64,000 bases of DNA from Candidatus Omnitrophota bacterium (GCA_903908245.1 CAIVRE010000018.1:66876-130875); one strand, 5' to 3'; shown: positions 43,974 through 62,943, numbered from the stretch's first letter. Notes: generated by a model not told the origin, from the letters alone. Made by a program: numbers and translations.

Positions 43974-44162
43974 TTATCCTTTTGAAGAGAACAGTTCGGG
44001 ATGTTCAATTGCTGTTTTACAGTATTCATCGGCTAGGATCATGGAAATGGCATCAAGCATGCGCTGAACAGCGGCTGAATCCTTCCAGGAGAAGGAGGCC
44101 TTTGATGCTTTATAGATTGCTGTGGGTTCAGTTGCTATGATTGCCATGTACTTTTTTAACAA
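43974..44162 (-). CDS. small hypothetical protein (62 aa) translationally coupled upstream of the recombinase
   Basis: Its stop lies 4 nt before the recombinase ATG; possible recombination accessory factor (speculative). Confidence 0.3.
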   Translation of the reverse strand: MLKKYMAIIATEPTAIYKASKASFSWKDSAAVQRMLDAISMILADEYCKTAIEHPELFSSKG

Positions 44163-44275
44163 ATCCCTTTAAGGGTATATAATAGTCAAGTATTATATAA
44201 AAAGGTTGACCGCTCTTCTATGTCTAAAATATACCACTTAATGGATAATTTGTCAAGTGACACGACGGGAGGTAT

Positions 44276-44477
44276 TATGGATCCAAAGGTATTGGGAAAG
44301 AAGATCAAGTTGGCAAGGGTGGAGCTTGATTTAACGCAAACAGATCTGGCCGATAAGATCGGGGCAAAGCAGAAGAGTGTTTCACGCTATGAGAACGGAG
44401 CTTCTACGCCGTCGCTTGAGACAATGGCTAAAATCGCTAAAGTGCTAAAGAGACCTGTGGATCATTTTGTACAATAA
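44276..44477 (+). CDS. XRE-family helix-turn-helix transcriptional regulator
   Basis: LTQTDLADKIGAKQKSVSRYENG is the HTH_3 motif; GGAGG SD before ATG 44276; divergent from the recombinase operon. Confidence 0.7.
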
Positions 44478-44526: not shown

Positions 44527-44617
44527 CGGATACACGACAGAACGCTGTCGTATTCGTTTTGTATATTAATAATCCGCTGTTTCACCACTTCCTAAGTGGC
44601 AACAATGAACAGGGGGC

Positions 44618-44635
44618 GCGACTTCTTCTTGTCGC
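44618..44635 (+). promoter_or_regulatory. palindromic operator copy 1 (GCGACT-N6-TGTCGC), 15 nt upstream of TATAAT (44651-44656)
   Basis: Same GCGACA-N6-TGTCGC family as the five downstream copies; sits upstream of the nuclease-WYL operon. Confidence 0.5.
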
Positions 44636-44666
44636 GCGTAGATATTTGAGTATAATAAGGATCTAT

Positions 44667-46238
44667 ATGAGTGAATCGTTTGACCAGCAGCAGTCTCATC
44701 ATGATCTTATTTACGACATCCTCGTCGAGAAGAATGCCGTAAAATCTTCCGGGACTCTTACAAAATCAAAATTCTTGAACGGGCTTCAATGTCCAAAACT
44801 TTTGTGGACCTGTTGTAATTCTTCCGAAACAATACCATCTCCTTCTGTCAGGACTCAACAAGTGTTCGATGTCGGGCATCAGGTTGGCGCGCTTGCTGTT
44901 GAGAGATTTCCTGGTGGACGCCATGTTCAAGAGGATGACTTCCTAAAGAATATTGAAGAGACGCAACTGCTTTTGGCTTTGAAAGATCCGCAGCCGATCT
45001 ATGAAGCGGGGATCAAGGCGGGACGGTTGTATTCCCGCGCTGATATCCTGGTTCCGTCGAAGACAGTATCCGGGGCCTGGGACATTGTCGAGGTTAAGTG
45101 CGGGGCCGGTGTTAAAGAAATTTATCTTCAGGACATTGCCTTTCAGCGTTATTGCTACGAACAGGCCGGGGTGAAGATCGGGCGTTGTTTCCTGATGCAT
45201 ATTAATAATGAATATGTTCGATGCGGTTCTATTGATGTTGAAAAGTTTTTTCATCTTGTTGATGTTACCGGTGATATTGTTTCGTTATCCGCGGCTTTGC
45301 CGGAAATTATTGACGGCTTTCTAAAGATCATTGATTTGCCTAAATGTCCTGAAGTTTGTATTGGCCAGTTTTGTGATACGCCGTATTCTTGTCAGATGAA
45401 GTCTTTGTGCTGGGAATTTCTTAAGCCCGGGAATGTGATGGAACTTCGCGGGCGTAAGGAGACGGCATTTAAGTTTTTAGAGCAGGGGATTGAACAGATC
45501 AGGGATATAACAGATCCGGAAAAGTTATCTGACGGGCCCATGATCCAGTATCAGTGTGCTTTGAGTGGAAAGCCTTTTGTCGATCATGAGAAGATCGCGG
45601 GTTTTGTTTCGGGGTTAAAATATCCCTTATATTTTATGGATTTTGAGACATTATTTGAGGCGATCCCGCGTTTTGACGGGACACGGCCTTATCAGCAGGT
45701 GCCATTCCAGTTTTCGGTACATTTACTGACGGGTCCCGGCGTATTTGCCGAGCACTTTGAATTCTTGCATAAAGAGTCGACAGACCCCCGTCCGGCGCTC
45801 TTTAAGGCGTTGCGTGAATGTTTGGATTCTAAAGGTACCATTCTTGCGTATGTCATGAGTTTTGAAAAAGCCAGGATCAGAGAACTTGGGGAAGCTTTTC
45901 CGGAACATGCTGGATGGTGCGCCAATGTTAGTGCCCGGATCGATGACCTTATCATTCCTTTCCGCAGTTTCTTTTATTATCATCCTGCTCAGCAGGGCTC
46001 TTCCTCGTTAAAGAAAGTTTTGCCTGCTCTGGTAGGCAGGGGGTATGAAGGCATGATGATCGCTGATGGGGCTCAGGCAACATCCGAATATGCCCGGGTG
46101 ACCTATGGTAAGGGAGTTGACCCTGTTGATCACGCTAAGGTCTATGAAGACCTTGAGGCCTATTGCGGGCTGGATACCATGGCGATGGTGTACATTTTAG
46201 AGAAGTTGAAACTATTGCAGAAAGGATCATCATTATGA
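44667..46238 (+). CDS. Cas4/RecB-like PD-(D/E)xK nuclease (with Cys cluster) fused to a DEDDy-type 3'-5' exonuclease domain
   Basis: N-terminal half has D...DIVEVKCG (D/EVK), a QxxxY motif (QDIAFQRY) and a C-x3-C-x4-C-x5-C cluster. C-terminal half has FMDFET (exo I DxE), a central acidic motif and YCGLD (YxxxD exo III). ATG at 44667 lies inside track ORF 44559. Confidence 0.55.
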   Translation: MSESFDQQQSHHDLIYDILVEKNAVKSSGTLTKSKFLNGLQCPKLLWTCCNSSETIPSPSVRTQQVFDVGHQVGALAVERFPGGRHVQEDDFLKNIEETQLLLALKDPQPIYEAGIKAGRLYSRADILVPSKTVSGAWDIVEVKCGAGVKEIYLQDIAFQRYCYEQAGVKIGRCFLMHINNEYVRCGSIDVEKFFHLVDVTGDIVSLSAALPEIIDGFLKIIDLPKCPEVCIGQFCDTPYSCQMKSLCWEFLKPGNVMELRGRKETAFKFLEQGIEQIRDITDPEKLSDGPMIQYQCALSGKPFVDHEKIAGFVSGLKYPLYFMDFETLFEAIPRFDGTRPYQQVPFQFSVHLLTGPGVFAEHFEFLHKESTDPRPALFKALRECLDSKGTILAYVMSFEKARIRELGEAFPEHAGWCANVSARIDDLIIPFRSFFYYHPAQQGSSSLKKVLPALVGRGYEGMMIADGAQATSEYARVTYGKGVDPVDHAKVYEDLEAYCGLDTMAMVYILEKLKLLQKGSSL

Positions 46239-47254
46239 CGGCAAAAAAGAAGATCGTTAAGAGCGGGCGGACAGGTAACAAGAAGAAGCTCGTGACTTTT
46301 AAGAGGACGGGAAGGGGAAAGAAGGCTGAAGGTCAGAAAAAGGCTGTGGAGCGCCTTATAACGATGCTTTCGATCTTGGATAAGGGCCGCTCGATCTCAT
46401 CCAAAGAAGTTTCGGATACCCTTCATGTTACTCAACGCACAGTTCAGAGAGATCTTAAGATCCTTCATGATGCGGGTTATCCTATTCAGGATCTTGAGAA
46501 CGGACGATACCAGTTCATGGAAGGCTTTTCCTTGCGCAAGGTTTCTTTGACAGAGGAGCAGGCGTCGCTCTTGTCGTTCATGTTCGATGTTGCATCCGGG
46601 TTAGGGGAGACTTTTGAAGCATCGTTCCGTGATCTTTTTAAACGCTTACTGGCCAAAGACCTTTATACGCCTTTCTATGCAAAGGTTCCGGTTAAACAGG
46701 CTCCGTTACCGGCGACGACACAGGTTAAGTTTCTTGAGGCGTCAATTCTTGAAAGCAACCGCATTAAGATCAAATATGTTTCAGCAACTCAAATTGAGAA
46801 AGAGTATTGTCTTGAGCCGCTGAAGATCGCATTCTTTGATGGGTTCTGGTATCTGATCGCGATCAAGAAAGGTGACAAGCAGATTCAAAAATACAGGGTG
46901 GACAGGGTGCTGGATGTAGAGATCCTGGAGGAGTCGTTTGCGCCTTCTGTAAATATTGACAAGATCCTCGGTGACAGCGTTAATATCTGGTTTGACGAGG
47001 TGCGAGGTGAGCGGGTTCTGATCAGGGTGGCGCCGGATGCGGTTCAGTATTTTAAGGAGCAAAAATATCTTCCGCTTCAAAAGACGGTTGAGGAGCGTAA
47101 GGATGGATCAATTGTGATCGAGACCTTTCCGGCTAACCTGGATGAGATCAAGCACATTGTCATGCATTGGGTGCCTTGTTTAACTGTGCTTGAGCCGGCG
47201 GGTTTCAAGGCCGAGATCAAGGCGATGGTGGAGGGGTATTTGAAGGATTGTTAA
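46235..47254 (+). CDS. HTH-WYL domain transcriptional regulator (BrxR/CapW-like) with Lys-rich N-terminal extension
   Basis: wHTH (ITMLSILDKGRSISSKEVSDTLHVTQRTVQRDLKIL) followed by a WYL domain (FFDGFWYLIAIKKGD...YRVDRV); the start overlaps the nuclease stop (ATGA). Confidence 0.65.
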   Translation: MTAKKKIVKSGRTGNKKKLVTFKRTGRGKKAEGQKKAVERLITMLSILDKGRSISSKEVSDTLHVTQRTVQRDLKILHDAGYPIQDLENGRYQFMEGFSLRKVSLTEEQASLLSFMFDVASGLGETFEASFRDLFKRLLAKDLYTPFYAKVPVKQAPLPATTQVKFLEASILESNRIKIKYVSATQIEKEYCLEPLKIAFFDGFWYLIAIKKGDKQIQKYRVDRVLDVEILEESFAPSVNIDKILGDSVNIWFDEVRGERVLIRVAPDAVQYFKEQKYLPLQKTVEERKDGSIVIETFPANLDEIKHIVMHWVPCLTVLEPAGFKAEIKAMVEGYLKDC

Positions 47255-47296
47255 GGGTTTAATAATTTCATAGGTAGTGATGAAAGGGCAAATCTT

Positions 47297-48268
47297 ATGG
47301 CAGGTAAAAAAGCTGTAAAAATTGAGGTTAAGAAGAAAGATGGCCCCTTTAAGAATTTTGATGAGAAGGGTAAGCTGGCCGAAGAGGGGACTTTAAAGAA
47401 TGGTGAGTTGGAGGGACTTTATAAGGAGTACGATGTAAACGGGAAGTTGGTTGAAGAAGCCGTTTATAAAAGTGGACTTAAGGATGGTCTTTTAAAGGCA
47501 TATTATGAAAATGGGAAAGTTGAGCATGAAATAGATCACAAACGTGGTATTCCGAATGGAATGTGTAAGTTTTATGATCCGAAAGGAATATTGCGCGAAG
47601 AGGGTTTTTATAAGAATGGGTTGAAGGAGGGCGTGTATAAATTCTACGATGAAAAGGGATTGCTGAGTAGAGAGGCAATCTTTAAGAATGGCAGTGAATT
47701 GCCGTCTAAGAATTTGTTAAAACAAACGTCCAAGAAGGTTTCTTCTAAGGTGCTTACGAAGACTCAAATTAGACAGTATTTGTTAGATGATTTAGTTCTT
47801 CGTATGTGTGCGGGGCCTGAAAGATTGCAACAGGTTAAGTTTATGCCAGCAGTGTTCAATTTTCTTCGGGATTTGAAGCTTAAGCACCCATTCTTCCCGC
47901 AATCTATTGATTCTAAGGAGTTGGAGAAATTTTATATTGATCCAGGAAGCGACGCGCAGAAGACTATTGCAAGTGTTGGCAAGAAGATCGAAGGTGGCTT
48001 GAAAAAGTTTAATAAAGATCAGTATGGAGCATTTTGTGAAATCGTTTGTAAAGATCAGTCTATCATTTTAGCGTTCTTATTAATTTCTGGAGCGTATGCA
48101 AGTATGGAATATTCCGTTGCCTTACTGGCTAGTCAGTGTCTTATTCCCGGATTTTCGGATATTAATGAGAAAACGTACGAGCATGATAAGGTGAGGCTTA
48201 TGATAGATACAGAGGACATCTTGGAGAAGTTTAGTCTGCCGCTATTTCCTTCCAGGAAGGAATCGTAG
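47297..48268 (+). CDS. MORN-repeat protein (YwqK-like N-terminal repeats) with unknown C-terminal domain
   Basis: Repeated G-x-L-E/K-G-x-Y-K-x-Y-x-x-N-G-K units. Confidence 0.5.
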   Translation: MAGKKAVKIEVKKKDGPFKNFDEKGKLAEEGTLKNGELEGLYKEYDVNGKLVEEAVYKSGLKDGLLKAYYENGKVEHEIDHKRGIPNGMCKFYDPKGILREEGFYKNGLKEGVYKFYDEKGLLSREAIFKNGSELPSKNLLKQTSKKVSSKVLTKTQIRQYLLDDLVLRMCAGPERLQQVKFMPAVFNFLRDLKLKHPFFPQSIDSKELEKFYIDPGSDAQKTIASVGKKIEGGLKKFNKDQYGAFCEIVCKDQSIILAFLLISGAYASMEYSVALLASQCLIPGFSDINEKTYEHDKVRLMIDTEDILEKFSLPLFPSRKES

Positions 48269-48405
48269 ATTGTGATTGATCTGTTTAACTCATTTTCGTT
48301 TCGATGGCATGTCGGTAAAGTGACTGTTAATAAGGGCCGGGGGTTCAAAGCCGAGACTATGGCAGACACATATTTGAAGGATGGTTAAAGAGTGGTGGGA
48401 ATCTT

Positions 48406-49031
48406 ATGAACCTGACTGATTTGAGAATTGTTGTTAAAGACTTGCTAATGAAGCGGGTTTATTGTTGTGAGGCGGATTTGCAGTTTTCTTTGGCCTGGAA
48501 ATTAAAAGAAAAAGATAACGATGTTCGTTTGGAGATTCCTTTTCATGGGATTGAAGATGAGGAAGGAAGAAGGAGTACCTGGATGTTCTCTTTTTATCAT
48601 CGACGAAAGAAAAGATCGGAGTGGAGCTAAAATATAAGACATCAAATTTTCCTTATGTTGATGCTTTTGCAGGGGCGCTTACCTTGAAAGATCATGGTGC
48701 ACAGGATCTTGGTTTATATGATTTCTTATGGGATGTGTACCGTTTGGAGCAATTTTGTAAGGATTCAAAGGTAGATCGGGGGTTTGCTGTCTTTGTTACG
48801 AATGATTACAGCTATAAAAATGACGTAAAGCGTCAGAAATCGAACGCCAACCAGTTTCGGTTGCCTGAAAATAGATTGATCACAGGGAGTTTGGCCTGGG
48901 GTAATCCTGATGCCGGGTCTTTAGGAAGCCGATTGTCAGAATTTAAATTGTACGGGCAGTATTCTGTAAATTGGGTTGATATTGAAGGTACTCATTTTTC
49001 ATTCCTGATTTTTGAGGTTTTAAGGCCTTAG
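48406..49031 (+). pseudogene. hypothetical gene apparently split by a +1/-1 frameshift at an A/G-rich tract (two overlapping ORFs, 48406-48630 and 48621-49031)
   Basis: The ORFs overlap by 10 nt in different frames at CGACGAAAGAAAAGATCGGAG. This could be a genuine frameshift, a programmed slip or a sequencing error. Confidence 0.3.
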
Positions 49032-49062
49032 AAACGGGTAATTGGTTGTCCTTTTTTGAAGG

Positions 49063-49080
49063 CGACAGGATGCTGTCGCC
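49063..49080 (+). promoter_or_regulatory. palindromic operator copy 2 (GCGACA-GGATGC-TGTCGC), 10 nt upstream of TATAAT
   Basis: Read directly; precedes phosphatase A. Confidence 0.5.
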
Positions 49081-49120
49081 TTCATGCTTTATAATCCATG
49101 CAGCTAAAAAGGAGGCTGAT

Positions 49121-50092
49121 ATGGCAGTAAGAAAAGATGATTCGGATGAGGGACGCATGTTTGAGGTTGCTGATTATGGGCGTGAACTTCCAAGGGAGAT
49201 TGATCCCGGCAAGCCGTATTGGGTGTTAGGTGGTAAGGCGGCGTTGTTTGGCATGCCGCATCCGAATCGACTCGCCAGGGATGGTCAGAAGGATCTGTTC
49301 AAAAGACTTCAGAATGCCAAAGTGCAGGTAATTATCAATCTGTCTGGGAGAAGGTATGCGAATCCTGATCCGAATTGGTTTGATTACCAAGAGTTTTTTA
49401 TCACTGACGGTGGTCCGATGGATGGAGAACAGAATATTCTTTGGGCGGCCGTTGCGTATGTTGTGAAGTCATTAAAAGCCGGGAAAAGTGTTGTGATCCA
49501 TTGTGAAGGCGGAACAGGACGCACGGGTGTGACAATAGGGTGCGTGTTGTGCAAGCTTGGAAAAGGAACCGGTCAGGACATCGCGATTTGGTTAAGTGAG
49601 CTTAATAATAGACGCCCCGGGAAACGCTGGCCTGAGGCCTCTATTCAAGGGAAGATCGTTCGGGAATGCTGTCCGGATAAGAAAGGCAATGATCGTCAGG
49701 TGATTGATCCGGCAACGCGCAATATTAAGGAAGTGTCGCTTTTTTCTGATGAAGAAAGAAGCTTTATGTGTACGGTTGTAGCCGTCAATGGAGATCGGAT
49801 TACAGTGCGCCGGCATGATACGGGAGAGGTTATTGAGGTTTCCAGCAGGTTCCTGCAGAAGCAGGAGCGGCCTCGGGAAGAACAAAGGAATGTGCAGGAT
49901 ATATTTGCATCGGCCACTCCGGAAGATCTTCAGGAAAGAGCTCGTCAGTATCCCTATATCCTTTTGGATGAGGTTCAACGGACGCTGGCGCTTTTTGCTA
50001 AGAAGTTGTCTTCAGCGAAGGCTGAGAAACTAAAGAATGATCTTTTAGATATTAATGCACGGATAGAGGTCCTTAAGAAAAAGATCAATTAA
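49121..50092 (+). CDS. Cys-based protein phosphatase-fold protein A (CX5R P-loop HCEGGTGRTG) with ~150 aa C-terminal extension
   Basis: VVIHCEGGTGRTGVTIGC is the PTP/DUSP-type active site. Paralog of 51664-52248 over the N-terminal ~190 aa. ATG inside track ORF 49046; coordinate ±1. Confidence 0.55.
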   Translation: MAVRKDDSDEGRMFEVADYGRELPREIDPGKPYWVLGGKAALFGMPHPNRLARDGQKDLFKRLQNAKVQVIINLSGRRYANPDPNWFDYQEFFITDGGPMDGEQNILWAAVAYVVKSLKAGKSVVIHCEGGTGRTGVTIGCVLCKLGKGTGQDIAIWLSELNNRRPGKRWPEASIQGKIVRECCPDKKGNDRQVIDPATRNIKEVSLFSDEERSFMCTVVAVNGDRITVRRHDTGEVIEVSSRFLQKQERPREEQRNVQDIFASATPEDLQERARQYPYILLDEVQRTLALFAKKLSSAKAEKLKNDLLDINARIEVLKKKIN

Positions 50093-50116
50093 GGATTTTC
50101 TAATTTATCTCTAATA

Positions 50117-50150
50117 AGCCGGACGGCATCAAAATGCTATCCGGCTTTTT
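50117..50150 (+). terminator. intrinsic terminator (AGCCGGA-N18-TCCGGCT + TTTTT)
   Basis: Stem plus T-run after phosphatase A; a similar hairpin sequence recurs at about 52296-52318. Confidence 0.55.
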
Positions 50151-50160
50151 CATTTTATTG

Positions 50161-50178
50161 GCGACACGATGTTGTCGC
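50161..50178 (+). promoter_or_regulatory. palindromic operator copy 3 (GCGACA-CGATGT-TGTCGC), followed by TGT-TATTAT extended -10
   Basis: Read directly. Confidence 0.5.
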
Positions 50179-50229
50179 TGGCAATTGTTATTATTGCATC
50201 AGGTGAACAAATGATAACAGGAAAGGAAA

Positions 50230-50442
50230 ATGCTTATGCAGATCGCCAGCGCAGTTCAACGGGGTTCGTCAGTCTATGTTTATGATCAGAACGGCAGTCA
50301 GTTGTGCAGTTTAAGTGCCGGTAGCGGTCCCAATGATGGACTGAAAGGGTATACGGGTTGTTCCGTTAGCATTCGACGGGGTAGCACCATATATACCTAT
50401 AACGAAAAAGGAAGTCAGATCTCGGTAACATCCGCAGTTTGA
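50230..50442 (+). CDS. small protein (70 aa) with internal tandem repeat
   Basis: GSSVYVYDQNGSQLCSLSAG and GSTIYTYNEKGSQISVTSA are two ~20 aa repeats. Confidence 0.35.
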   Translation: MLMQIASAVQRGSSVYVYDQNGSQLCSLSAGSGPNDGLKGYTGCSVSIRRGSTIYTYNEKGSQISVTSAV

Positions 50443-50451
50443 GGAGAGAGT

Positions 50452-51051
50452 TTGATGCGAAGTTTTGTGATCGGCGATATTCATGGTCAGGATGAAGCTC
50501 TTGTGTCGGTTCTATCGAAATGCGGGTTTGTGTATGAAGAGGACCGTCTGATCGTCTTAGGCGACATATACGATGGATTGAAACCTGAGGCGTGCATTGA
50601 GCATCTTAAAACGATCAGGCATTTGGTGTCGATCATGGGTAATCATGATCATGCGGTCATGGATATGCAAATACGTGAGGGGCAATACGCTCCTGAGACG
50701 ATGTTCCTAAAGTCCATGCGTTCATTCTTTACGGAAGACGGGAGGTTTTTTGCTCATGGGGGCTTTGATCCATACAAGCCTCTGACGGAGCAGGACGAGT
50801 ACGATCTTGAGGGAAGTCGAAAACTTCCGTCTGAGGCCTGGAAAGCGCATATGAGGGGTGATGATTTTATGATCGATGGGTTCCGTGAGGTTTATGTGGG
50901 TCATACGCCAACCCAGATCTATGGGTTTACAACGCCGCTAAATCTTGGGAATCTTTGGATGATGGATACCGGAGCAGCGCCGAGGCTCGGTGGGTATTTA
51001 AGCGTCATGGATATTGATACCAAGGAGTTTTGGCAGGTGAAATGCTGCTAA
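50452..51051 (+). CDS. PPP-family metallophosphoesterase (Ser/Thr phosphatase / ApaH-PrpE-like)
   Basis: GDIHG, GDIYDG, GNHD and VGHTP are the calcineurin-like phosphoesterase motifs. Confidence 0.75.
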   Translation: MMRSFVIGDIHGQDEALVSVLSKCGFVYEEDRLIVLGDIYDGLKPEACIEHLKTIRHLVSIMGNHDHAVMDMQIREGQYAPETMFLKSMRSFFTEDGRFFAHGGFDPYKPLTEQDEYDLEGSRKLPSEAWKAHMRGDDFMIDGFREVYVGHTPTQIYGFTTPLNLGNLWMMDTGAAPRLGGYLSVMDIDTKEFWQVKCC

Positions 51052-51084
51052 TTCATTTCGAGTCAAGTAAGAGATTTTGAAGGG

Positions 51085-51639
51085 GTGCCTATGAAGTGGA
51101 GTGAGTTTGTTCAACGAAAAGAAGCGTATAAAAAGACCTGGGCGTTGCTTAAGGCTGAATATGCGCCCGAGAATCCGGTAAGAAAGTTCCTGGATAAGGC
51201 TTACATGAACATCTTCTTCAATGGAAAGCAAATTGATTTTAATTTAGATCCGTACACTATTGCACGTGACACTCCGGATTTCTTCGTTAAGAATAAATAT
51301 TTTAATGAATATCTTGAGTTGATTAAGACATGTAAGGCATTGGAAGATTTGTCTTATAAAGAGAAAAAGACGAAGGTTACTAACGAATTCGATCACAATG
51401 GAACTATAAGGAAGAAAGTCAGTCGATTAGATATGAAAAAGAAAGAACTTCAGCAGTTTGATGTCAATCAACTTGAAGTGGTGCCTAATCGCGCGGAAAT
51501 GATCGTCTCGACGATAGATATGGATATTATTCAGAATATCAAGGGGTCAAAGTTCTGCGATCAAGAGGCAACCTTAATGAGTCGTGCCTCAATACGGGTG
51601 ATCCTTGTTGGCGGTGATAAATTGGGATATCCATGGTAA
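51085..51639 (+). CDS. hypothetical protein X1 (paralog of 52414-52905)
   Basis: MKWSEF... and the C-terminal IDMDIIQNIKGSKFCDQEATLMSRASIRVIL align with the paralog's MTWDEF... and VDMDLIQQIKNSPYCDQEKTMMRPASINVVL. Confidence 0.4.
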   Translation: MPMKWSEFVQRKEAYKKTWALLKAEYAPENPVRKFLDKAYMNIFFNGKQIDFNLDPYTIARDTPDFFVKNKYFNEYLELIKTCKALEDLSYKEKKTKVTNEFDHNGTIRKKVSRLDMKKKELQQFDVNQLEVVPNRAEMIVSTIDMDIIQNIKGSKFCDQEATLMSRASIRVILVGGDKLGYPW

Positions 51640-51663
51640 AAGAACGATCAAGGGAGAGCAAAT

Positions 51664-52248
51664 ATGCCTGTTATGACTGAAGAACTGGATGAGCCGCGCA
51701 TCTATGAGATCGCTGATTATGGAAAACCTCTGCCGCGGGTTATGAATCCTTTGAGGGCGTATCGTGTCCTTGACGGCAACGCGTCGTTATTCGGGATGCC
51801 GCATCCGTCCATTCTTAAGGAAATAGACCGCAAGCAGTTGTTTGCTCAATTGTATGAGGACGGAGTTCGTTATCTTATTAATCTGACTAAAGAAAATTCA
51901 GGTGCTTCATATTCCGACAGGATTTTATTATCATCGTTTTGTCCTGTTACGGATCAGGGACCAAAAGGGGCTATTGAAAAGACTATGCTTTTATCGGGCG
52001 TAGATAGCGCGGTAGCGGCTTTAAAGAATGGCGAGGGGGTTGTGATCCATTGTTGGGGAGGAACCGGGCGTACGGGGACGGCCATCGGGTGTATTTTACG
52101 CAAGCTGGGTAAAGGCTCCGGTGTAGAGATTGTGAATTGGCTTGGTGAGTTGAATCAAAGGCGTGAAAGGCATTGGCCGGAGTCACCGGTACAGGCTGAA
52201 GTGGTTAGGGAGTGTCAGCCGGGGGAAGATTTCTTTGATAGGCTGTAA
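51664..52248 (+). CDS. Cys-based protein phosphatase-fold protein B (HCWGGTGRTG)
   Basis: VVIHCWGGTGRTGTAIGC; the N-terminus IADYGKPLPRVMNP...LFGMPHPS is paralogous to protein A. Confidence 0.55.
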   Translation: MPVMTEELDEPRIYEIADYGKPLPRVMNPLRAYRVLDGNASLFGMPHPSILKEIDRKQLFAQLYEDGVRYLINLTKENSGASYSDRILLSSFCPVTDQGPKGAIEKTMLLSGVDSAVAALKNGEGVVIHCWGGTGRTGTAIGCILRKLGKGSGVEIVNWLGELNQRRERHWPESPVQAEVVRECQPGEDFFDRL

Positions 52249-52330
52249 TCTTTAAGGCAGAGAATTTTGAACGCTGTTGTTATTAAGGCCGGGCGACATG
52301 AAAGTGTTATCCGGTTTTTCTTTTTACTAA

Positions 52331-52348
52331 ACGACAGGATGCTGTCGC
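52331..52348 (+). promoter_or_regulatory. palindromic operator copy 4 (ACGACA-GGATGC-TGTCGC)
   Basis: Read directly; preceded by a hairpin resembling the 50117 terminator. Confidence 0.45.
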
Positions 52349-52413
52349 GTGAGTGTTTTAAGGTTATGTACGGTGTTGATCCGGGCAGGCAGGTGAATCG
52401 GGCGGGGGGTGTT

Positions 52414-52905
52414 ATGACATGGGATGAGTTTCTGGCAGAAAAGAAGTTGTATGTTCAATCCTGGAAGAAAATGAAAGAGGGCGCTACAGAAGATATGCAG
52501 AAGTTTCTGAGCAAGTCCTGGATCGTGGTGTATTGCAAACAGCAGTTTGATATTGATGCGGATTTTATGACTGTTTTTAATGAATGTCCTTCATTCTTTC
52601 AAAATGTGCCAAGGTTCACCAGGATCAAAGCGCTCTGTGAAGAGATGAAGACGCTTGAGAAACGCATTAAGCGGGAGAAAGAAAACCATAGTGACCTGCT
52701 GGAAGATAAGAAAGATCTTCAAGAAGAAATAGCGGAGTTGTGTCCGGGGGAGCTTCCAGTTGATGATTCCTGGAGGATTGAGGTCAGGTTTCCTACTGTA
52801 GATATGGATCTGATCCAACAGATCAAGAATTCTCCGTATTGTGATCAGGAAAAGACAATGATGCGCCCTGCCTCTATTAATGTGGTGTTGAAGAACGTAC
52901 TGTAA
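52414..52905 (+). CDS. hypothetical protein X2 (paralog of 51085-51639)
   Basis: See X1. The start was chosen by paralog alignment; alternatives are ATG 52366 and the track start 52267. Confidence 0.4.
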   Translation: MTWDEFLAEKKLYVQSWKKMKEGATEDMQKFLSKSWIVVYCKQQFDIDADFMTVFNECPSFFQNVPRFTRIKALCEEMKTLEKRIKREKENHSDLLEDKKDLQEEIAELCPGELPVDDSWRIEVRFPTVDMDLIQQIKNSPYCDQEKTMMRPASINVVLKNVL

Positions 52906-52912
52906 AGACCGT

Positions 52913-53314
52913 ATGGAAGAAATCAATGGAAAATTAAAGGTCAGACTTTCGCCCGCAGTTATTAGAGGGTGGACCATCGAGTTGGATAGGATTTTTCGTT
53001 CCTGTGACAGGAATGATACAAAGATCAGAATCTTCAAGTTTTGTTATCAGCCTGTAAGTGGCGAGTTGATTTTTGACGGGTCATATTTTCATGCTGACAT
53101 GCTTAGAAAGCATGGATGCCAAAAGTTCGATGAGTATGTTCGTGGGATCTGTTTCTGGAAGAAACGGGTTATTTATCTCAGGGGGCATGCGAATGAGGAT
53201 TGGCTTAATAAGACAAAGGCAATGCTTCGTCAAAATGGTGTTGGGCGGCATATCCGGATTATTTGGGGAGAAAAGGCAGCACATGAGCTTCGTCACGATT
53301 TGATTGGCCTGTAA
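52913..53314 (+). CDS. hypothetical protein (133 aa)
   Basis: ORF in operon context; no recognisable domain. Confidence 0.35.
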   Translation: MEEINGKLKVRLSPAVIRGWTIELDRIFRSCDRNDTKIRIFKFCYQPVSGELIFDGSYFHADMLRKHGCQKFDEYVRGICFWKKRVIYLRGHANEDWLNKTKAMLRQNGVGRHIRIIWGEKAAHELRHDLIGL

Positions 53315-53319
53315 ATTTG

Positions 53320-53337
53320 GCGACAGGATGTTGTCGC
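53320..53337 (+). promoter_or_regulatory. palindromic operator copy 5 (GCGACA-GGATGT-TGTCGC), followed by TGT-TATACT extended -10
   Basis: Read directly. Confidence 0.5.
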
Positions 53338-53383
53338 GGCCAATTGTTATACTTGATCCCGGAAGACAAAAACGGGAGAGGTT

Positions 53384-54841
53384 ATGATGGATAATACTAT
53401 TGGTTGGCTGATTGCAGGTCTTTTAGTGGTCGTATTTTTGATGGCTTTGTTTTCAAAGAAGCCCGTTAAGTCAAAAGTTTTCAAAGTCAGAACGCGAGTT
53501 GTGCCGCCGGTTGATTGTGCGAAAGAAGATTTCTTTGCCCGTTTTGATGATGCGATTGAGCAGAATCTTACCAATGCGGCGTCTATGAGCTACGATCCGC
53601 CACTTCAAGAAGAAGGCCCGGAAGATGATCCGGTTTTTGAACTTCCATCCACAAGACCTCAATTTCGCATCCCGGAAGCCTCGCTGAAGATGGGCATTTC
53701 TCCAGTAAAGCCGCGCATGGCTTCAGCGAAGACCAAATTATTAGCTGCTCCAAAACGACTCGCCCTGTTCCTTGTGGCAAGCTCATTTCTGTTTGCTATT
53801 AGCGGTGAGGCGTTTGCTTTATCGGTAGACAGGCCTTTTACTGGAACCGACGAGCATACGGTTTATCAGCCATTTGATGAGGCGAATAGCGATCCGGTTT
53901 ATAAAAGCAGTGTACTACCTGGGACAACAGTAAAGTCGACGGCTCTCCAATCTTCAGATCATTTGAATGTTAGTAAGCCGGTTGCAAAAGACAGTTTTAA
54001 AGCCATTGCCGTTGAAAATTCGTCTTCGGCAAAGGATTCGAATGCCTGGGTATTCTGGGTTCTTGGCATCCTGTTGATGATCTCCGGTTTTGGTATTGCT
54101 CAAGCGTATTCATTGGAAATGGTTTTCTTTAATGATAGCGCTGACATGTGGCTTTCGATTGCTATGGCAGTAGTTGTGGCATGCCTCTGTTTTGTGCAAG
54201 ACAAAACCTGGCTCTGGAGTGGCTTTGGATTTGTTGTTATTTATCATTTTGTGGCGGCATATAAATTCAATCCGGGTATGGGTGCAATGGCATTTATTAT
54301 CGGGATATCAAGGGTGATCATCGGCGTTGTTATACCTGCAATAGCTTTATTTACATTAGTCTCCGGCCCGTCAAGGGAAAAGGACGAGAGTGCCGCCAGT
54401 TATGAAGCCAGATGCGCCATGCATATGGTCTTTAAAGCAGCATTCTTAACGGGGTTGTTCTTCTTTATGAAGTCGTTGGTGAATGGTCAGAAAGTGCGTG
54501 AGGCAAGAGGGGAGTTTGAGCATTTTGAGGAGTCATTTGAACAGAAGTCTGAGGAATCAGCCAAGGCTGAGCCACGGAGCGAAAAGGGCTCTGATGGTCA
54601 GAAGAACGGTTTTAAAGCAGCCTCAGAGCACGCTCCGTCAGATCATGAGATCTTTGGGGTTTCCCGGAATGCAACTTTTGAGGCCATACAGCGGGCATAC
54701 CGTAAAAAGATGATGAAGATCCATCCTGATCGGATGGCGGGCCTGGGGGCGAAGTATCGGCAGAAGGCCGAGGAAGAATGCAAAAAAATTAATGCGGCCT
54801 TTGATCGATTGCGGAAAGAGAGGAACCATGTCTTTGTTTGA
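53384..54841 (+). CDS. DjlA-like membrane protein with C-terminal J domain
   Basis: N-terminal TM segment plus a central cluster of TM helices. C-terminal J domain (DHEIFGVSRNATFEAIQRAYRKKMMKIHPDR...) carries the HPD motif. Confidence 0.6.
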   Translation: MMDNTIGWLIAGLLVVVFLMALFSKKPVKSKVFKVRTRVVPPVDCAKEDFFARFDDAIEQNLTNAASMSYDPPLQEEGPEDDPVFELPSTRPQFRIPEASLKMGISPVKPRMASAKTKLLAAPKRLALFLVASSFLFAISGEAFALSVDRPFTGTDEHTVYQPFDEANSDPVYKSSVLPGTTVKSTALQSSDHLNVSKPVAKDSFKAIAVENSSSAKDSNAWVFWVLGILLMISGFGIAQAYSLEMVFFNDSADMWLSIAMAVVVACLCFVQDKTWLWSGFGFVVIYHFVAAYKFNPGMGAMAFIIGISRVIIGVVIPAIALFTLVSGPSREKDESAASYEARCAMHMVFKAAFLTGLFFFMKSLVNGQKVREARGEFEHFEESFEQKSEESAKAEPRSEKGSDGQKNGFKAASEHAPSDHEIFGVSRNATFEAIQRAYRKKMMKIHPDRMAGLGAKYRQKAEEECKKINAAFDRLRKERNHVFV

Positions 54842-55157
54842 TGCCCGTATAGCGCATATTAACCGTTATTTTGCTGTCTATTTAACTGTTATTTCGGTGG
54901 TCCTTGTTTTGGTCATTTCCGGATCTCCCGTTGCTATTTCATTGTCACATTTCGATAGAGATATGCCTGTTGGTTTCGGCAAGGGGATGGCGCACGGGTT
55001 TTTGCTGTCTGTGAACCTTATCCGTTCGATCTTTGATGTTCGGACAGGTATTTACCAGATACCCAACACTGGAATGGGATACAACGCAGGGTTCTTTCTG
55101 GGCATTATTTTATGGTTCGCTATCGGGCGTATGGGGGAAGAAACGAAGGCGACATGA
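54828..55157 (+). CDS. small hypothetical membrane protein (109 aa)
   Basis: ATG 54828 inside track ORF 54792; two predicted TM helices; overlaps the J-protein 3' end. Confidence 0.35.
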   Translation: MSLFDARIAHINRYFAVYLTVISVVLVLVISGSPVAISLSHFDRDMPVGFGKGMAHGFLLSVNLIRSIFDVRTGIYQIPNTGMGYNAGFFLGIILWFAIGRMGEETKAT

Positions 55158-55166
55158 GGCTGTCGC
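55149..55166 (+). promoter_or_regulatory. palindromic operator copy 6 (GCGACA-TGAGGC-TGTCGC)
   Basis: Read directly; precedes the long downstream operon. Confidence 0.5.
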
Positions 55167-55212
55167 TGGTTAATGCTAAGCTCTTATACATAATTAATAC
55201 TCAGGTGATTGC

Positions 55213-55617
55213 ATGCAAGAGAGAATCTTGAAGAAGCGAAAAACGTATAAGCCTATCGACGCGGAAACGCTGGGGCGTAGCCTTTTTAAGATCCACACGT
55301 GTAAGAAACGAGGAAAGTATTCGCCGGCCGTTAAAGTCATTGCCGGTGATATATGGGAGATGCTTGGTGGGATGCGGGCAATGGCGCAGGAGTTTGTTAA
55401 GAATCCGACGCTTGAGGTAATGGAAGAACTCAGATTTTGGTTATTGGATAGTGATCATCATTGGAATTCATTAAAGAATATTTGCAGCAGGAGCAGAGGG
55501 CGGCGGAGTTTGGATCGCTTGGCTAAAGAATATCCGCAGTGGTTGTTGCTGCTACCTTTGGAAGATGTAGCAGAACGGTTATGGTGGCTTGAAGAAGAAG
55601 GAGATGAGGGAATATGA
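55213..55617 (+). CDS. hypothetical protein (134 aa), translationally coupled to the AAA+ ATPase
   Basis: Stop/start overlap (ATGA) with the next gene. Confidence 0.35.
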   Translation: MQERILKKRKTYKPIDAETLGRSLFKIHTCKKRGKYSPAVKVIAGDIWEMLGGMRAMAQEFVKNPTLEVMEELRFWLLDSDHHWNSLKNICSRSRGRRSLDRLAKEYPQWLLLLPLEDVAERLWWLEEEGDEGI

Positions 55618-56984
55618 AAAATGATCAGGAATACTTCGATAACTACTTTTGCATCAGTGAACTGCTGATCGAGAAAGATCTGCTTGTCGATAAGTTGTGG
55701 GAGGGCAAAAACGATACCGGATATTTGGCCAGCGCACACTATCAGGCAAGGAAGGCCATTAACACGCTTAATTCTTTGATACGCGATGAAGAAAAGCGCT
55801 TGAGTCATATTATTCGTAAGGCTGAGTCGCAAGGAACGATTTTTTCTTTTGAATCGTTCACAAGAAAGATGGAGTTGAGTGATTTTGAGAAACGACTGAT
55901 GCTTTTCTTTCTGCATCTTGATCTGTTTTGCAGTGGCAGCGTCGGTTTTCCAAGAAGAAAGCTGGCGTTGATCCTTGATTGCGAAGAAACAGCGGTATCC
56001 CGTGCGAGAACGTTGCTGGATCTGTTTCCAGGTAGTGCTTTATACAAGAAGAATATTCTGTCTGCGATCGACATCGGCGGAAGTGAGGTTCGTTTGGCTG
56101 AGAGCATGCGGGATGCTTTGAGAAAACTTGTGTCAGGTCAGGAGGCGGATCTTGTTATGACTGAGACTACCCGGGAGGAGATTGAGGCTGCCGGGGTTGT
56201 TTATGAGCCCGAATACAGCATGGAAGACGTGTCGCTTCCCGGGCAGATCAAAGAACAGGTTTTAATGCATTTGAACACGCATGGACGGCTGGCATCGTTA
56301 GGAGTCATGGATAAAGTGCGGCGCGGTCGTGGGCTTTGCATGTTGTTTTATGGTCCTCCAGGGACAGGGAAAAGCATGCTTTCTCATGCCATAGCACGTC
56401 ATTTAGGAAAAAAGGTTCTTCAGGCATCTCCGGCGCAGATCAAAGACCGCTGGGTAGGCCAGACAGACAAGAATATTGCCGCTTTATTCAAGGTGGCTAA
56501 AGAAAAGAATTATGTCTTGTGTCTGGATGAGGTCGATACGCTTTTATTTGAACGAAGCGAGGCGTCACGTTCATGGGAGATCTCGCAGACGAATACGTTT
56601 CTTGAAGAAGTAGAAAGATTTGACGGGATTTTAGTAATGACAACAAATCTGGAAGGGCGGCTTGATCCAGCGATTGAGCGCCGGGTGGCGTTGCGTGTCC
56701 GTTTTGATGCGCCTGACCATTGCGTACGGGAGACTATCTGGCAGAAACAGATCCCGTCGACTGTTAAGTGTGGGGAAGATATTAATTGGGCTCGTCTGGG
56801 AATGCAGTATTCATTTACCGGCGGTTATATCAAGAATGCCGTCATGTCCGCGTTGCGTCATATGCTTTCACGGGAAAGTCAGGTGCTTGAGATGGAGGAT
56901 CTTGTTTATGGAGCCGAGAGTGAAATGAAGGGGCTTTTACGAAGTTCCGCTAAAGCTCCAATGGGTTTTGCAACTAGAGGATAA
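55614..56984 (+). CDS. classic-clade AAA+ ATPase with ~230 aa N-terminal domain of unknown function
   Basis: Walker A LFYGPPGTGKSM, Walker B VLCLDEVD and second region of homology/Arg finger (TTNLEGRLDPAIERRV). Confidence 0.75.
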   Translation: MKNDQEYFDNYFCISELLIEKDLLVDKLWEGKNDTGYLASAHYQARKAINTLNSLIRDEEKRLSHIIRKAESQGTIFSFESFTRKMELSDFEKRLMLFFLHLDLFCSGSVGFPRRKLALILDCEETAVSRARTLLDLFPGSALYKKNILSAIDIGGSEVRLAESMRDALRKLVSGQEADLVMTETTREEIEAAGVVYEPEYSMEDVSLPGQIKEQVLMHLNTHGRLASLGVMDKVRRGRGLCMLFYGPPGTGKSMLSHAIARHLGKKVLQASPAQIKDRWVGQTDKNIAALFKVAKEKNYVLCLDEVDTLLFERSEASRSWEISQTNTFLEEVERFDGILVMTTNLEGRLDPAIERRVALRVRFDAPDHCVRETIWQKQIPSTVKCGEDINWARLGMQYSFTGGYIKNAVMSALRHMLSRESQVLEMEDLVYGAESEMKGLLRSSAKAPMGFATRG

Positions 56985-56990
56985 AAATCT

Positions 56991-57179
56991 ATGAATCTTA
57001 AGGAATGGCAGAAGATGCTTGGCAAGAAGAAGTTCCCGAGTTTGCACGGTGTTTATGATGCCATTGATATGGATGGGCGGATTGTGGGGCGGACGGTCTA
57101 CATCAAGGGCAGGAAGGTCATGACGATTGCACCAATATGGCCGGAAGAAGAAATTACGATAGACGACGAAAAGAAATAA
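56991..57179 (+). CDS. small hypothetical protein (62 aa)
   Basis: ORF between the AAA gene and murA2 in a tight operon. Confidence 0.3.
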   Translation: MNLKEWQKMLGKKKFPSLHGVYDAIDMDGRIVGRTVYIKGRKVMTIAPIWPEEEITIDDEKK

Positions 57180-57192
57180 TAGACAGGAACTT

Positions 57193-58482
57193 ATGGAAAA
57201 ACTTGTGATCAATGGCGGAGTGCCGCTTAAAGGTGAAGTATTCATTTCTGGATCGAAGAACGCTTCTTTGCCGGCCATGGCCGCGACATTGTTAACGGAT
57301 GAGCCTTGTGTTCTTAAGAATGTGCCAGTGGTTTCGGATATTAACACAATGAGTAATCTTTTAATGACTCTGGGTAAGGATGTTAAACGGGATAAGGATG
57401 CTTTGATCATCACATCAAAAGGCCGGTTGAAGCCATTGGCTGATTATCGCCTTGTATCAACGATGCGCGGGTCAGTGTGCGTGCTCGGCCCCCTTCTGGC
57501 TCGACTTGGAGAAGCGCGGGTGGCTTTGCCTGGCGGATGTGTTATTGGTGTCAGGCCGGTCGACTTGCATCTTAAAGGCTTTGAAAGTCTTGGGGCCAGG
57601 ATCGATATTGAGGGTGGATATATTATCGCCAAGTCTTCAAGGCTTAAAGGGGCACGCATGTATCTTGCAGGGGCCATGGGGCCTTCTGTTCTTGGCACAG
57701 CAAATGTGATGATGGCCGCAACCCTGGCCACAGGCGAGACAACCATTGAGGGGGCGGCCTGTGAGCCGGAGATCAAGGACCTCGCCGATCTTTTGAACCT
57801 TATGGGGGCGAAAATAAGCGGCCACGGCAGCCCTACGGTGGTCATTGAAGGTGTTAAACGACTGCACGGGGTTGAGTACAAGGTTTCAGCTGATCGCATT
57901 GAGGCCGGAACATTCATTCTATTGTCAGCCATGACACGGGGAAATGTGATCGTTCGCGGCGTTGAACATCATCGTCTTTTGTCTGTGGTGGATGCGTTGA
58001 ATGAAGCTGGTGTTGCATGTGAATGCCGCGGAGCTTCAGTGCGCGTAAAGTCACCAGCAAGATTTAAGCCAGTGAATGTAACAACCCATCCTTATCCGGG
58101 GTTTCCGACAGATCTTCAGGCTCAGTACATGGCCATGATGACGCTGGCAGATGGGGTGAGTTCTGTTAGGGATACAGTTTTTCCGGACAGATTCATGCAT
58201 CTTGCTGAACTAGCGCGCATGGGGGCCAAGGTTCGTCGTGAAGGGGGCGTGGCGGTCATTGAAGGGGTTAAGGAGCTCAAGGGTGCCCCTGTGATGGCGT
58301 CGGATTTAAGGGCGTCTGTGGCGCTGGTTATGGCCGGTGTTGTGGCTAAAGGGCAGACAGAGGTCCGCCGTATATACCATCTCGACCGTGGATATGAGGG
58401 CATTGACCGGAAATTGATCGATTTAGGGGCTAAAGTAAGACGGGAACAGGATAAAGTTGTGCCTAATGAGGAGATCGGATAA
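57193..58482 (+). CDS. murA: UDP-N-acetylglucosamine 1-carboxyvinyltransferase paralog (MurA2)
   Basis: About two-thirds identical by eye to the MurA at 2017-3279 across the full length. Retains [13 protein letters not shown] with the Cys and carries a ~10 aa C-terminal extension. Confidence 0.9.
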   Translation: MEKLVINGGVPLKGEVFISGSKNASLPAMAATLLTDEPCVLKNVPVVSDINTMSNLLMTLGKDVKRDKDALIITSKGRLKPLADYRLVSTMRGSVCVLGPLLARLGEARVALPGGCVIGVRPVDLHLKGFESLGARIDIEGGYIIAKSSRLKGARMYLAGAMGPSVLGTANVMMAATLATGETTIEGAACEPEIKDLADLLNLMGAKISGHGSPTVVIEGVKRLHGVEYKVSADRIEAGTFILLSAMTRGNVIVRGVEHHRLLSVVDALNEAGVACECRGASVRVKSPARFKPVNVTTHPYPGFPTDLQAQYMAMMTLADGVSSVRDTVFPDRFMHLAELARMGAKVRREGGVAVIEGVKELKGAPVMASDLRASVALVMAGVVAKGQTEVRRIYHLDRGYEGIDRKLIDLGAKVRREQDKVVPNEEIG

Positions 58483-60037: not shown

Positions 60038-60046
60038 CGGAAAGAG

Positions 60047-60895: not shown

Positions 60896-60898
60896 GGA

Positions 60899-62271: not shown

Positions 62272-62275
62272 TAGC

Positions 62276-62899: not shown

Positions 62900-62943
62900 C
62901 TGAATGTTATTCTTTGAATGATGAGAAAAGGCGCTAATTTAAT

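Follow-up and report, generated by a model that had tools for sequence, protein, structure and literature searches.

The 64,000-nt stretch of a Candidatus Omnitrophota genome analysed here (GCA_903908245.1, CAIVRE010000018.1:66876-130875; hereafter the window) contains an integrated element, the island, in which consecutive genes are preceded by copies of an 18-bp palindrome, GCGACA-N6-TGTCGC. We propose that this palindrome is the upstream half of a regulator-dependent composite promoter, which would be read by a WYL-domain activator of the DriD/PafBC/SiwR type and triggered by single-stranded DNA (ssDNA). We hold this to be the probable reading, with appreciable doubt remaining. It is built on a promoter grammar of fixed geometry, on the conservation of this grammar in other genomes, on its linkage to WYL genes, and on the likeness of the WYL protein encoded in the island (46235-47254) to characterised activators.

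The window was scanned with the pattern GCGACA-N6-TGTCGC, allowing at most two mismatches, and 100 dinucleotide-preserving shuffles served as control. Ten matches were detected, as against 1.9 expected, and this number was reached in none of the 100 shuffles. Eight of the ten (copies 1a, 1b and 2 to 7 in Table 1) are confined to 44.5-62.9 kb, and the matches at 20994 and 62140 look like chance occurrences, being intragenic and devoid of a -10 hexamer at N10. A first-pass annotation, made from the sequence alone, had located six copies correctly (except that the second starts at 49062, not 49063) and had missed those at 44534 and 62880. It had also seen no motif in the 42 kb of housekeeping sequence, which holds for functional-looking copies, as we found none there.

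Seven of the eight island copies share a single grammar, GCGACA-nRAnGy-TGTCGC-N10-TAnnnT, the distance between palindrome and -10 hexamer being 10 nt in all seven and 15 nt in copy 1b, at 44618. The flanking sequences bear out the spacings, the hexamers and the three TGn-extended -10 elements listed in the first pass, and the copy at 62880 adds another TGn (four of the eight window promoters: 50161, 53320, 55149 and 62880). In every copy, the motif starts 49-83 nt upstream of an ATG, and a Shine-Dalgarno sequence is present. The 6-nt spacer is both asymmetric and conserved (nRAnGy), always in the orientation of the downstream gene, and no -35 consensus was found in any of the seven N10-type promoters of the window. 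The composite element TGTCG[CT]-N10-TAnnnT occurs exactly seven times when both strands of the 64 kb are searched (about one occurrence expected by chance, according to our own arithmetic), and all seven are on the + strand, inside the island and associated with a full palindrome. The first-pass view that the palindromes mark promoters of consecutive transcription units is upheld, with seven units, the metallo-beta-lactamase (MBL) gene at the end of the window having a copy of its own, at 62880. That the copies head seven separate units is plausible, because terminator-type hairpins precede copies 1a, 3 and 4; copy 1a lies directly 3' of the terminator hairpin (gccgccttatggcggctttttt) of the XRE-family gene found at the island edge.

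Past the motif, the promoters at 50161-50194 and 53320-53353 are nearly identical (GCGACAsGATGTTGTCGCkGGCmAATTGTTAT), which suggests that the promoter module itself was duplicated or swapped among cassettes.

Copy 1b departs from the common grammar. Its spacer consists of pyrimidines, without the conserved A3/G5, and its right half, TTGTCG (44629-44634), is the -35 element of a sigma-70-like promoter, TTGTCG-16-TATAAT (10/12 match), located about 45 nt downstream of the transcription start expected from copy 1a. An equal two-site layout precedes a 65%-identical DUF2779 gene at another locus, L064 (L-numbers denote the loci or blocks that we fetched), where a regular N10 copy is followed, 63-84 nt on, by a GCGACT...CTTGTCGC-N15-TATAAT copy. 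An antisense promoter at 44618 was considered and rejected, as the minus strand has no TAnnnT at N10. By analogy with DriD, which has a site in the driD promoter, copy 1b is probably a basal-promoter or autoregulatory (feedback) site of the regulator's own operon.

The exact sequence of the WYL protein was found solely on short metagenomic contigs, and its homologues belong mostly to Candidatus Omnitrophica/Omnitrophota. Three loci fetched through 62-77%-identical homologues (L003-L005) carry the palindrome before consecutive genes, with six copies in L003 and two to three in L004 and L005, and TAnnnT is present at N10 in all nine L003-L005 copies. To obtain loci that were not selected via the WYL gene, we ran a motif-first scan on one genome per species (185,579 species, 596 Gb) with the pattern GCGACANRANGNTGTCGC-N10-TANNNT, for which we calculate about 35 chance matches, and analysed blocks of up to 8 kb. 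The scan yielded at least 120 blocks, among which 53 are from Elusimicrobia/Elusimicrobiota and 25 from Omnitrophota; many of the blocks listed share a genome, with about 17 from one Elusimicrobiaceae metagenome-assembled genome (MAG). The remaining 42 listed blocks are close in number to the chance expectation, yet an adjacent WYL gene shows several of them to be clearly genuine.

The search pattern does not account for the N10 register: of 86 other palindromes in the fetched loci, which were not selected for a -10 hexamer, 42 have TAnnnT at N10, as against 0-10 at each other offset. The sites also act like promoters: in the promoter orientation, 80% of them are followed by a gene start at no more than 120 nt, as against 24% in the opposite orientation and 41% for random positions. 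Four palindromes have TAnnnT exactly at N10 on both sides (L007 5844, L032 6144, L045 2110 and L080 1271), and a single palindrome therefore appears to serve divergent promoters at these places. The logo derived from 172 sites reads GCGACA-t-R-A-y-G-Y-TGTCGC-N10-TA-t-a-(c/a)-T, with the A3/G5 asymmetry always facing the gene. The slot that a -35 element would occupy, 17 bp from the -10, corresponds to motif positions 6-11 ('A t R A y G'), where T is never found as the first base; 300 nt away, at the XRE and recombinase genes, there are canonical promoters of the TTGACA type. The half-sites are 8 nt apart (N8) in all window copies and in the 172 related sites.

In the betaproteobacteria Polaromonas and Rhodoferax (L040, L067, L081), the matches lie inside a conserved DUF4143 gene and are most readily seen as chance occurrences that coding conservation has preserved, not as sites of regulation. 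A phage origin of the motif was rejected, as only five matches were found in 2.9 million viral contigs, one of them being another WYL locus with the same motif-WYL arrangement. The signal is in use across Elusimicrobiota and Omnitrophota, and is hence not specific to the island.

A WYL-family open reading frame (ORF) is present in 23 of the 120 motif-first blocks listed (hmmsearch E<1e-10), and WYL is the sole transcription-factor family enriched near the sites in these blocks. All-against-all clustering of their ORFs likewise gives WYL as the largest family (22 loci); the second cluster appears to be a WYL antisense shadow (checked for one member, L069), and the next real family is DUF2779 (10 loci). 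The motif is located immediately 5' of the WYL gene in L007, L029, L065, L089, L092, L098 and L121, and 5' of a DUF2779-WYL operon in the window, L003, L052 and L080. Elsewhere, it lies 16-70 nt past the WYL stop codon, where it heads the next gene (L005, L023, L034, L042, L046, L069, L101 and L113). The WYL family is the best candidate reader of the motif, because it is the most frequent family near it and because the motif usually adjoins a WYL gene or heads its operon. The first-pass choice of the HTH-WYL protein as candidate regulator thus gains from loci chosen by the motif, and a regulatory role of the WYL protein can be regarded as well supported on comparative grounds, this being how comparative genomics ordinarily links a site to an autoregulated factor.

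What kind of regulator this protein may be can be approached through its relatives. Its recognition helix is T66-Q-R68-T-V-Q71-R72-D73 and its WYL motif G203-F-W-Y-L207. Among 68 homologues, Q71, R72 and D73 are invariant and R68 is at least 90% conserved; the same invariance holds for G203, F204, W205 and Y206, with L207 at least 90% conserved, and flanking arginines are absent. What defines the CapW/BrxR repressor subfamily is an RWHVR signature that replaces WYL and is accompanied by flanking ssDNA-contacting arginines (PMC11662680). This signature is found neither in the island protein nor in the 68 homologues, GFWYL standing in its place. The best sequence matches in the PDB, according to phmmer, are PafBC and DriD, and no BrxR or CapW protein is among the phmmer matches at E<0.01. 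The AlphaFold2 model (mean pLDDT 80) comprises a winged helix-turn-helix (wHTH), three helices (107-123, 125-143 and 162-172), a WYL barrel and a WCX domain. In a Foldseek search with this model, PafBC and DriD chains come first (E 1e-14 to 1e-10), followed by BrxR/CapW from rank 16 onwards (E 5e-9 to 5e-7). Because of the promoter geometry (no -35, rigid N10), the relatives retrieved by sequence and fold, and the presence of GFWYL instead of RWHVR, an activator is favoured over the BrxR/CapW-type repressor that the first-pass annotation had inferred.

The resemblance to known activators extends to the promoters. The PafBC consensus is tGTCgg(N10)tA(N3)T, its '-26 element' spanning -23 to -28 in the absence of a -35 (PMC8635444); the counterpart here is TGTCGC(N10)TAnnnT, the sixth half-site base being G in PafBC and C or T here. 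PafBC, which operates by 'sigma adaptation' in mycobacteria and other Actinobacteria, is activated by ssDNA, controls a large DNA-damage regulon including recA, reads its GTC triplet by two arginines at i and i+4, and provides the best PDB match by sequence and fold. It differs in being a heterodimer or fusion of two paralogues with one HTH on the DNA, in having a non-palindromic site and in not binding DNA without RNA polymerase, whereas the island has a single gene and a full palindrome.

DriD binds the site CGxC-N7-GxCG (ATACGAC-N7-GTCGTAT), where R37 and R41 read guanines (PMC10853764). According to a 2026 cryo-electron microscopy study, it sits on the -35 slot, equally far from the -10 in every one of its promoters, none of which has a -35 consensus, and recruits RNA polymerase via the alpha C-terminal domain and beta (PMC13004042). 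An 'optimised -35' construct of the same study has TTGACA one base upstream of TGTCGC (PMC13004042), and we computed the same relation here. In the didA oligonucleotide of that study (PMC13004042), the distance from the proximal half-site to the -10 can be read as N9 or N10 depending on the placement of the Caulobacter -10, and our N10 comparison is accordingly made with PafBC and our DriD comparison through the -35 slot. Likenesses to DriD include a single gene with the order wHTH, helical linker, WYL and WCX, a top structural match, a pseudo-palindrome with CGAC/GTCG half-sites (TGTCGC also closes the native didA site), a putative Arg(i)/Arg(i+4) pair of the recognition helix (identified here by pattern), a site that takes up the -35 slot of promoters devoid of a -35 consensus, with constant spacing to the -10, a regulon with recA and other repair and nuclease genes, and a site before the regulator's own gene. 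Differences also exist, as identity is about 16%, the spacer contains G/C with A3/G5 and is not AT-rich, the regulator is paired here with a DUF2779 nuclease, and seven mobile-island units (phosphatases, J-domain protein, AAA ATPase, MurA and others) would be driven. The motif is not an exact DriD box, a possibility that we rejected since the half-sites match and their spacing does not (N8 instead of N7). Finally, SiwR of Mycobacterium smegmatis is a homodimeric WYL activator with a palindrome between -35 and -10, in which the -26 region is essential (PMC10693628). The homodimer, the position of its imperfect palindrome and the essential -26 region are points of likeness, as is induction by genotoxic and oxidative stress; its GGA-triplet half-site, its control of a single adjacent operon and its restriction to Actinobacteria are points of difference.

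We infer binding, the sign of regulation and the ligand from these comparisons. A homodimer of the wHTH-WYL-WCX protein, either the 46235-47254 product or a close paralogue encoded elsewhere in the genome, would bind both CGAC/GTCG half-sites through the conserved Arg68/Arg72 pair of its recognition helix. The site would cover the -35 place, with the proximal half-site at about -28 to -23, and the regulator, once bound, would assist the housekeeping RNA polymerase at promoters with a good -10 and no -35, as DriD, PafBC and SiwR do. By analogy with every characterised family member, the WYL domain may sense ssDNA, arising from DNA damage or when phages or mobile elements replicate, and would in that event turn on all seven island units jointly.

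Several points weigh against an ssDNA-triggered activator. The similarity to PafBC and DriD is remote at the sequence level (15-18% identity, phmmer E 1e-5 to 3e-4). R68-T-V-Q-R72 does lie in the third HTH helix; its equation with R37/R41 of DriD, however, follows from the helix pattern and not from a residue-level superposition, and the phmmer alignment to DriD left the HTH uncovered. The ssDNA-contact residues of DriD are partly kept (W206 is matched by Tyr and R207 by Arg, but K202 and R204 by Gln, with Lys nearby), and the half-site spacing is N8 where DriD has N7. There are several WYL paralogues per genome, and the island's own copy need not be the acting one. In addition, a site over the -35 slot fits occlusion by a repressor equally well, and either the TG-extended -10 found in 28% of the sites or the spacer, which often contains TGAC (a partial -35 core), could allow activator-free transcription.

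The last two points lead to the main alternative, a CapW/BrxR-like repressor whose ligand-free form would block the -35 region of active promoters and leave upon ssDNA binding, only the sign of regulation being different. We see this as possible, if rather unlikely. WYL repressors of defence systems do bind palindromes of about 20 bp in their own promoters and release them on ssDNA (PMC11662680), and the CapW/BrxR proteins of CBASS, BREX and defence islands share with the island protein the wHTH-WYL-WCX organisation, a palindromic operator of that size near their own operon, ssDNA as inducing ligand and an association with mobile or defence islands. The site and the footprint of RNA polymerase overlap, some promoters might fire unaided given the TG extensions and TGAC spacers just mentioned, and the island has defence-like genes, including an AAA ATPase that resembles IetA/IteA below the family threshold. 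Occlusion, however, does not require a rigid N10 or a promoter-oriented spacer asymmetry, both of which are expected of an RNA polymerase-activator complex, and a rigid -10 register has not been described for CapW/BrxR operators. The first base of the -35 slot, moreover, is never T. On the protein side, GFWYL is invariant where this subfamily has RWHVR, three helices are predicted in place of its two-helix domain-swapped linker, and BrxR/CapW, unseen by sequence, trail the activators by 5-6 orders of magnitude in Foldseek E-value. Whether the regulator activates or represses, the units are likely to be co-induced, and ssDNA is expected to induce the island, because both subfamilies sense ssDNA.

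It is very unlikely that the palindrome is not an operator at all, and is instead a REP-like hairpin repeat mobilised by IS200/Y1 genes, a terminator stem or the target of an unlinked host factor. Y1_Tnp genes do adjoin the motif in at least seven blocks, but they lie downstream of it, as regulated genes would. A terminator scan marks several copies as hairpins; these matches are artefacts of the palindromy of the motif, most copies having no T run after the stem, and separate terminator hairpins are found 5' of copies 1a, 3 and 4. Some genomes have many copies, as expected for a repeat. REP/RAYT repeats, however, are intergenic hairpins with no fixed relation to promoters and typically occupy the 3' ends of genes, whereas the sites studied here are 5' of genes, face them and keep a fixed N10 to the -10, with WYL as the only transcription-factor family enriched nearby. 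The other candidate of the first-pass annotation is the XRE protein (44277-44477), for which speak its HTH and the place of its gene, at the island edge and a short way upstream of the first two copies. As the palindrome-binding regulator it is scarcely credible, since XRE genes are absent from the motif-bearing related loci L003, L004 and L005, XRE homologues occur in two of the 120 motif-first blocks listed (against 22-23 for WYL), and the region upstream of the XRE gene has a different palindrome over canonical divergent promoters, which fits a local recombinase/XRE switch.

This recombinase/XRE intergenic region (44140-44280) contains near-consensus sigma-70 promoters, two of which, TTGACA-17-TATATT (-) and TTGTCA-17-TATTAT (+), overlap the palindrome TGTCA-AG-TGACA (about 44251-44262), distinct from the 18-bp motif and probably the XRE protein's own operator for an integration/excision switch.

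The genes found directly behind the motif among the motif-first matches listed include recA (L077), ssb (L025), radC (L022), a DnaQ-like exonuclease gene (L068), dnaB (L058), genes for a UvrD-like helicase (L038) and a PIF1-like helicase (L037), rmuC (L071), YhcG PD-(D/E)XK nuclease genes (at least four blocks), Schlafen-like helicase genes (L018 among others), cas3 (L042, from a cultured Halanaerobium), DUF2779 (at least five blocks), AAA ATPase genes (at least eight blocks) and IS200/Y1-transposase-like genes (at least seven blocks: L009, L010, L012, L108, L114, L116 and L117). In Omnitrophota, small PQ-loop proteins, tetratricopeptide repeat (TPR) proteins and homologues of two island paralogues, X1 and X2, recur behind the motif. 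By analogy with PafBC and DriD, this set looks like the profile of a DNA-damage or ssDNA regulon with lineage-specific accessory cassettes. The Y1 transposase-family blocks are mostly from Elusimicrobia, in which transposase-like proteins that act on ssDNA would be under an ssDNA-sensing regulator. In Halanaerobium saccharolyticum (L042, 2488-5690), a distant WYL gene is followed 16 nt on by a perfect motif that heads the Cas3 gene (HD, helicase and Cas3 C-terminal domains); this organism, culturable and outside both main phyla, is a possible test system.

Cassettes of the island also recur elsewhere. Another Omnitrophota genome (L109) carries homologues of the island TPR (61% identity), PAD, HAD and MBL (88-93%) proteins beside different cassettes, and two DUF2779-WYL pairs are found in L033 and L047, which share a contig with L109 (CAIUQE010000034.1, 1-24000). 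The related island of this Omnitrophica MAG (L109, L033 and L047; L003) has two DUF2779-WYL modules and at least nine motif copies, and its cassettes include a YhaV-like toxin, a PQ-loop protein, two AAA ATPases and a DnaB_C protein. Because the same cassettes recur in other combinations, each with its own copy of the motif, the shared signal denotes common control and not one machine of about 20 genes. The first-pass conclusion that a shared operator implies one co-induced system is thus kept for its first half, co-induction being likely, and abandoned for the second, as the signal is used across two phyla and the cassettes occur in other combinations elsewhere.

The left island edge has the recombinase gene next to a tRNA-Ser gene, and the G+C content drops from about 0.50 to about 0.44 once inside the island; all island genes after the XRE gene are on the + strand (Table 1). 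The recombinase ORF as listed runs through the opposite-strand tRNA-Ser, and its C-terminal residues resemble a translated tRNA; the gene itself may end elsewhere, and the island is integrated at tRNA-Ser. The DUF2779-WYL pairing is kept in related loci. X1 and X2 are paralogues from a family without a Pfam match. In L052, L056, L058, L062 and L076, from five further genomes of Omnitrophota, a homologue comes right after the motif, and L080 has one as well; the family seems to belong to the core of the Omnitrophota regulon.

Table 1. Features of the island and of its left edge, in map order (positions in the window)
Feature	Position	Strand	Description
Large serine recombinase	42081-43970 (ORF as listed, 42078-43970)	-	Pfam Resolvase, Recombinase, Zn_ribbon_recom; left island edge
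tRNA-Ser	42210-42300	+	tRNA call; adjoins recombinase at left island edge
Recombinase/XRE promoter	within 44140-44280	+	TTAACA-16-TATAAT
Recombinase/XRE promoter	within 44140-44280	-	TTGACA-17-TATATT with TG
Recombinase/XRE promoter	within 44140-44280	+	TTGTCA-17-TATTAT
XRE-family HTH gene	44277-44477	+	Pfam
Promoter copy 1a	44534-44567	+	ACGACAGAACGCTGTCGT, N10, -10 TATATT (44562-44567); heads DUF2779 nuclease/WYL/MORN operon
Copy 1b (atypical)	44618-44656	+	GCGACTTCTTCTTGTCGC, N15, TATAAT (44651-44656)
DUF2779 nuclease-like gene	44667-46238	+	Pfam; co-operonic with WYL gene
wHTH-WYL-WCX regulator gene	46235-47254	+	339 aa; Pfam HTH_11, WYL, WCX
MORN gene		+	Follows WYL gene
Two small ORFs		+	Between MORN gene and phosphatase A
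Promoter copy 2	49062-49095	+	GCGACAGGATGCTGTCGC, N10, TATAAT; heads phosphatase A
Phosphatase A gene	49121-50092	+	DSP/PTP-type
Promoter copy 3	50161-50194	+	GCGACACGATGTTGTCGC, N10 (TGt), TATTAT; heads next unit
Unit of copy 3	50236-52248	+	In order: 68-aa ORF, metallophosphatase, X1, phosphatase B
X1 gene	51085-51639	+	Paralogue of X2
Promoter copy 4	52331-52364	+	ACGACAGGATGCTGTCGC, N10, TAAGGT; heads X2 and 133-aa ORF
X2 gene	52414-52905	+	Followed by 133-aa ORF
Promoter copy 5	53320-53353	+	GCGACAGGATGTTGTCGC, N10 (TGt), TATACT; heads J-domain gene and 121-aa ORF
Membrane J-domain protein gene	53384-54841	+	Followed by 121-aa ORF
Promoter copy 6	55149-55182	+	GCGACATGAGGCTGTCGC, N10 (TGc), TAAGCT; heads next unit
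Unit of copy 6 (ten genes)	55213-62899	+	In order: 134-aa ORF, AAA ATPase, 62-aa ORF, MurA, MORN, TPR, PAD_porph family protein, 170-aa ORF, HAD, 207-aa ORF
AAA ATPase gene	55614-56984	+	In unit of copy 6
MurA gene	57193-58482	+	In unit of copy 6
Promoter copy 7	62880-62913	+	GCGACATAACGCTGTCGT, N10 (TGt), TATTCT; heads MBL/beta-CASP gene
MBL/beta-CASP gene	62944-	+	RNase J-like; continues past window end

Two other island proteins deserve mention. MurA is full-length and scores above the NCBIfam equivalog cut-off (523 bits vs 393); a second, stress-induced copy of the first peptidoglycan-synthesis enzyme would be unexpected inside an inducible unit. The AAA ATPase resembles the anti-phage proteins IetA/IteA, far under the family cut-off (101 vs 510 bits), and related AAA genes lie behind the motif in L003, L014, L032, L056, L093, L101 and L103. 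Known defence systems were considered for the island and rejected, as PADLOC returned generic WYL models and sub-threshold IetA-like AAA ATPase matches only, and gave no match for the other eight island proteins tested.

A wider proposal can be formulated, which we regard as speculative and, on balance, doubtful. The DUF2779-nuclease/WYL pair may be the sensor module of an undescribed, modular, ssDNA-triggered conflict system (anti-phage or host-manipulation) of Omnitrophota and Elusimicrobiota, whose cassettes, each with a plug-in promoter, would be exchanged on recombinase-borne islands, with the same regulator also at the head of a DNA-damage response independent of LexA (recA, ssb, uvrD-like and others). 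The cassettes of such a system would include eukaryote-like phosphatases, the J-domain membrane protein, AAA ATPases, PQ-loop and X-family proteins, MurA, PAD and the beta-CASP nuclease.

Within the literature that we searched, no paper deals with this regulon, with the DUF2779-WYL pairing or with WYL proteins in Elusimicrobiota or Omnitrophota. The regulator class and the promoter architecture are already known; what is new is the N8 spacing, the occurrence in Elusimicrobiota and Omnitrophota, the conserved DUF2779 partner, and the presence of the signal before at least seven units in the unusual cargo of a recombinase-borne island. A shared operator alone, it should be stressed, is not proof of one functional system. 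The architecture of DriD, PafBC and SiwR is extended to two largely uncultured phyla, and a rule that needs sequence only (CGAC-N8-GTCG, TAnnnT following the proximal half-site after exactly 10 nt) would make regulons readable from MAGs. The recA, ssb, helicase and nuclease genes behind the motif make up a candidate LexA-independent DNA-damage response in Elusimicrobiota and Omnitrophota. Lastly, a mobile island has placed this promoter before at least seven otherwise unrelated units, which indicates that mobile cargo can be wired into a host stress regulon.

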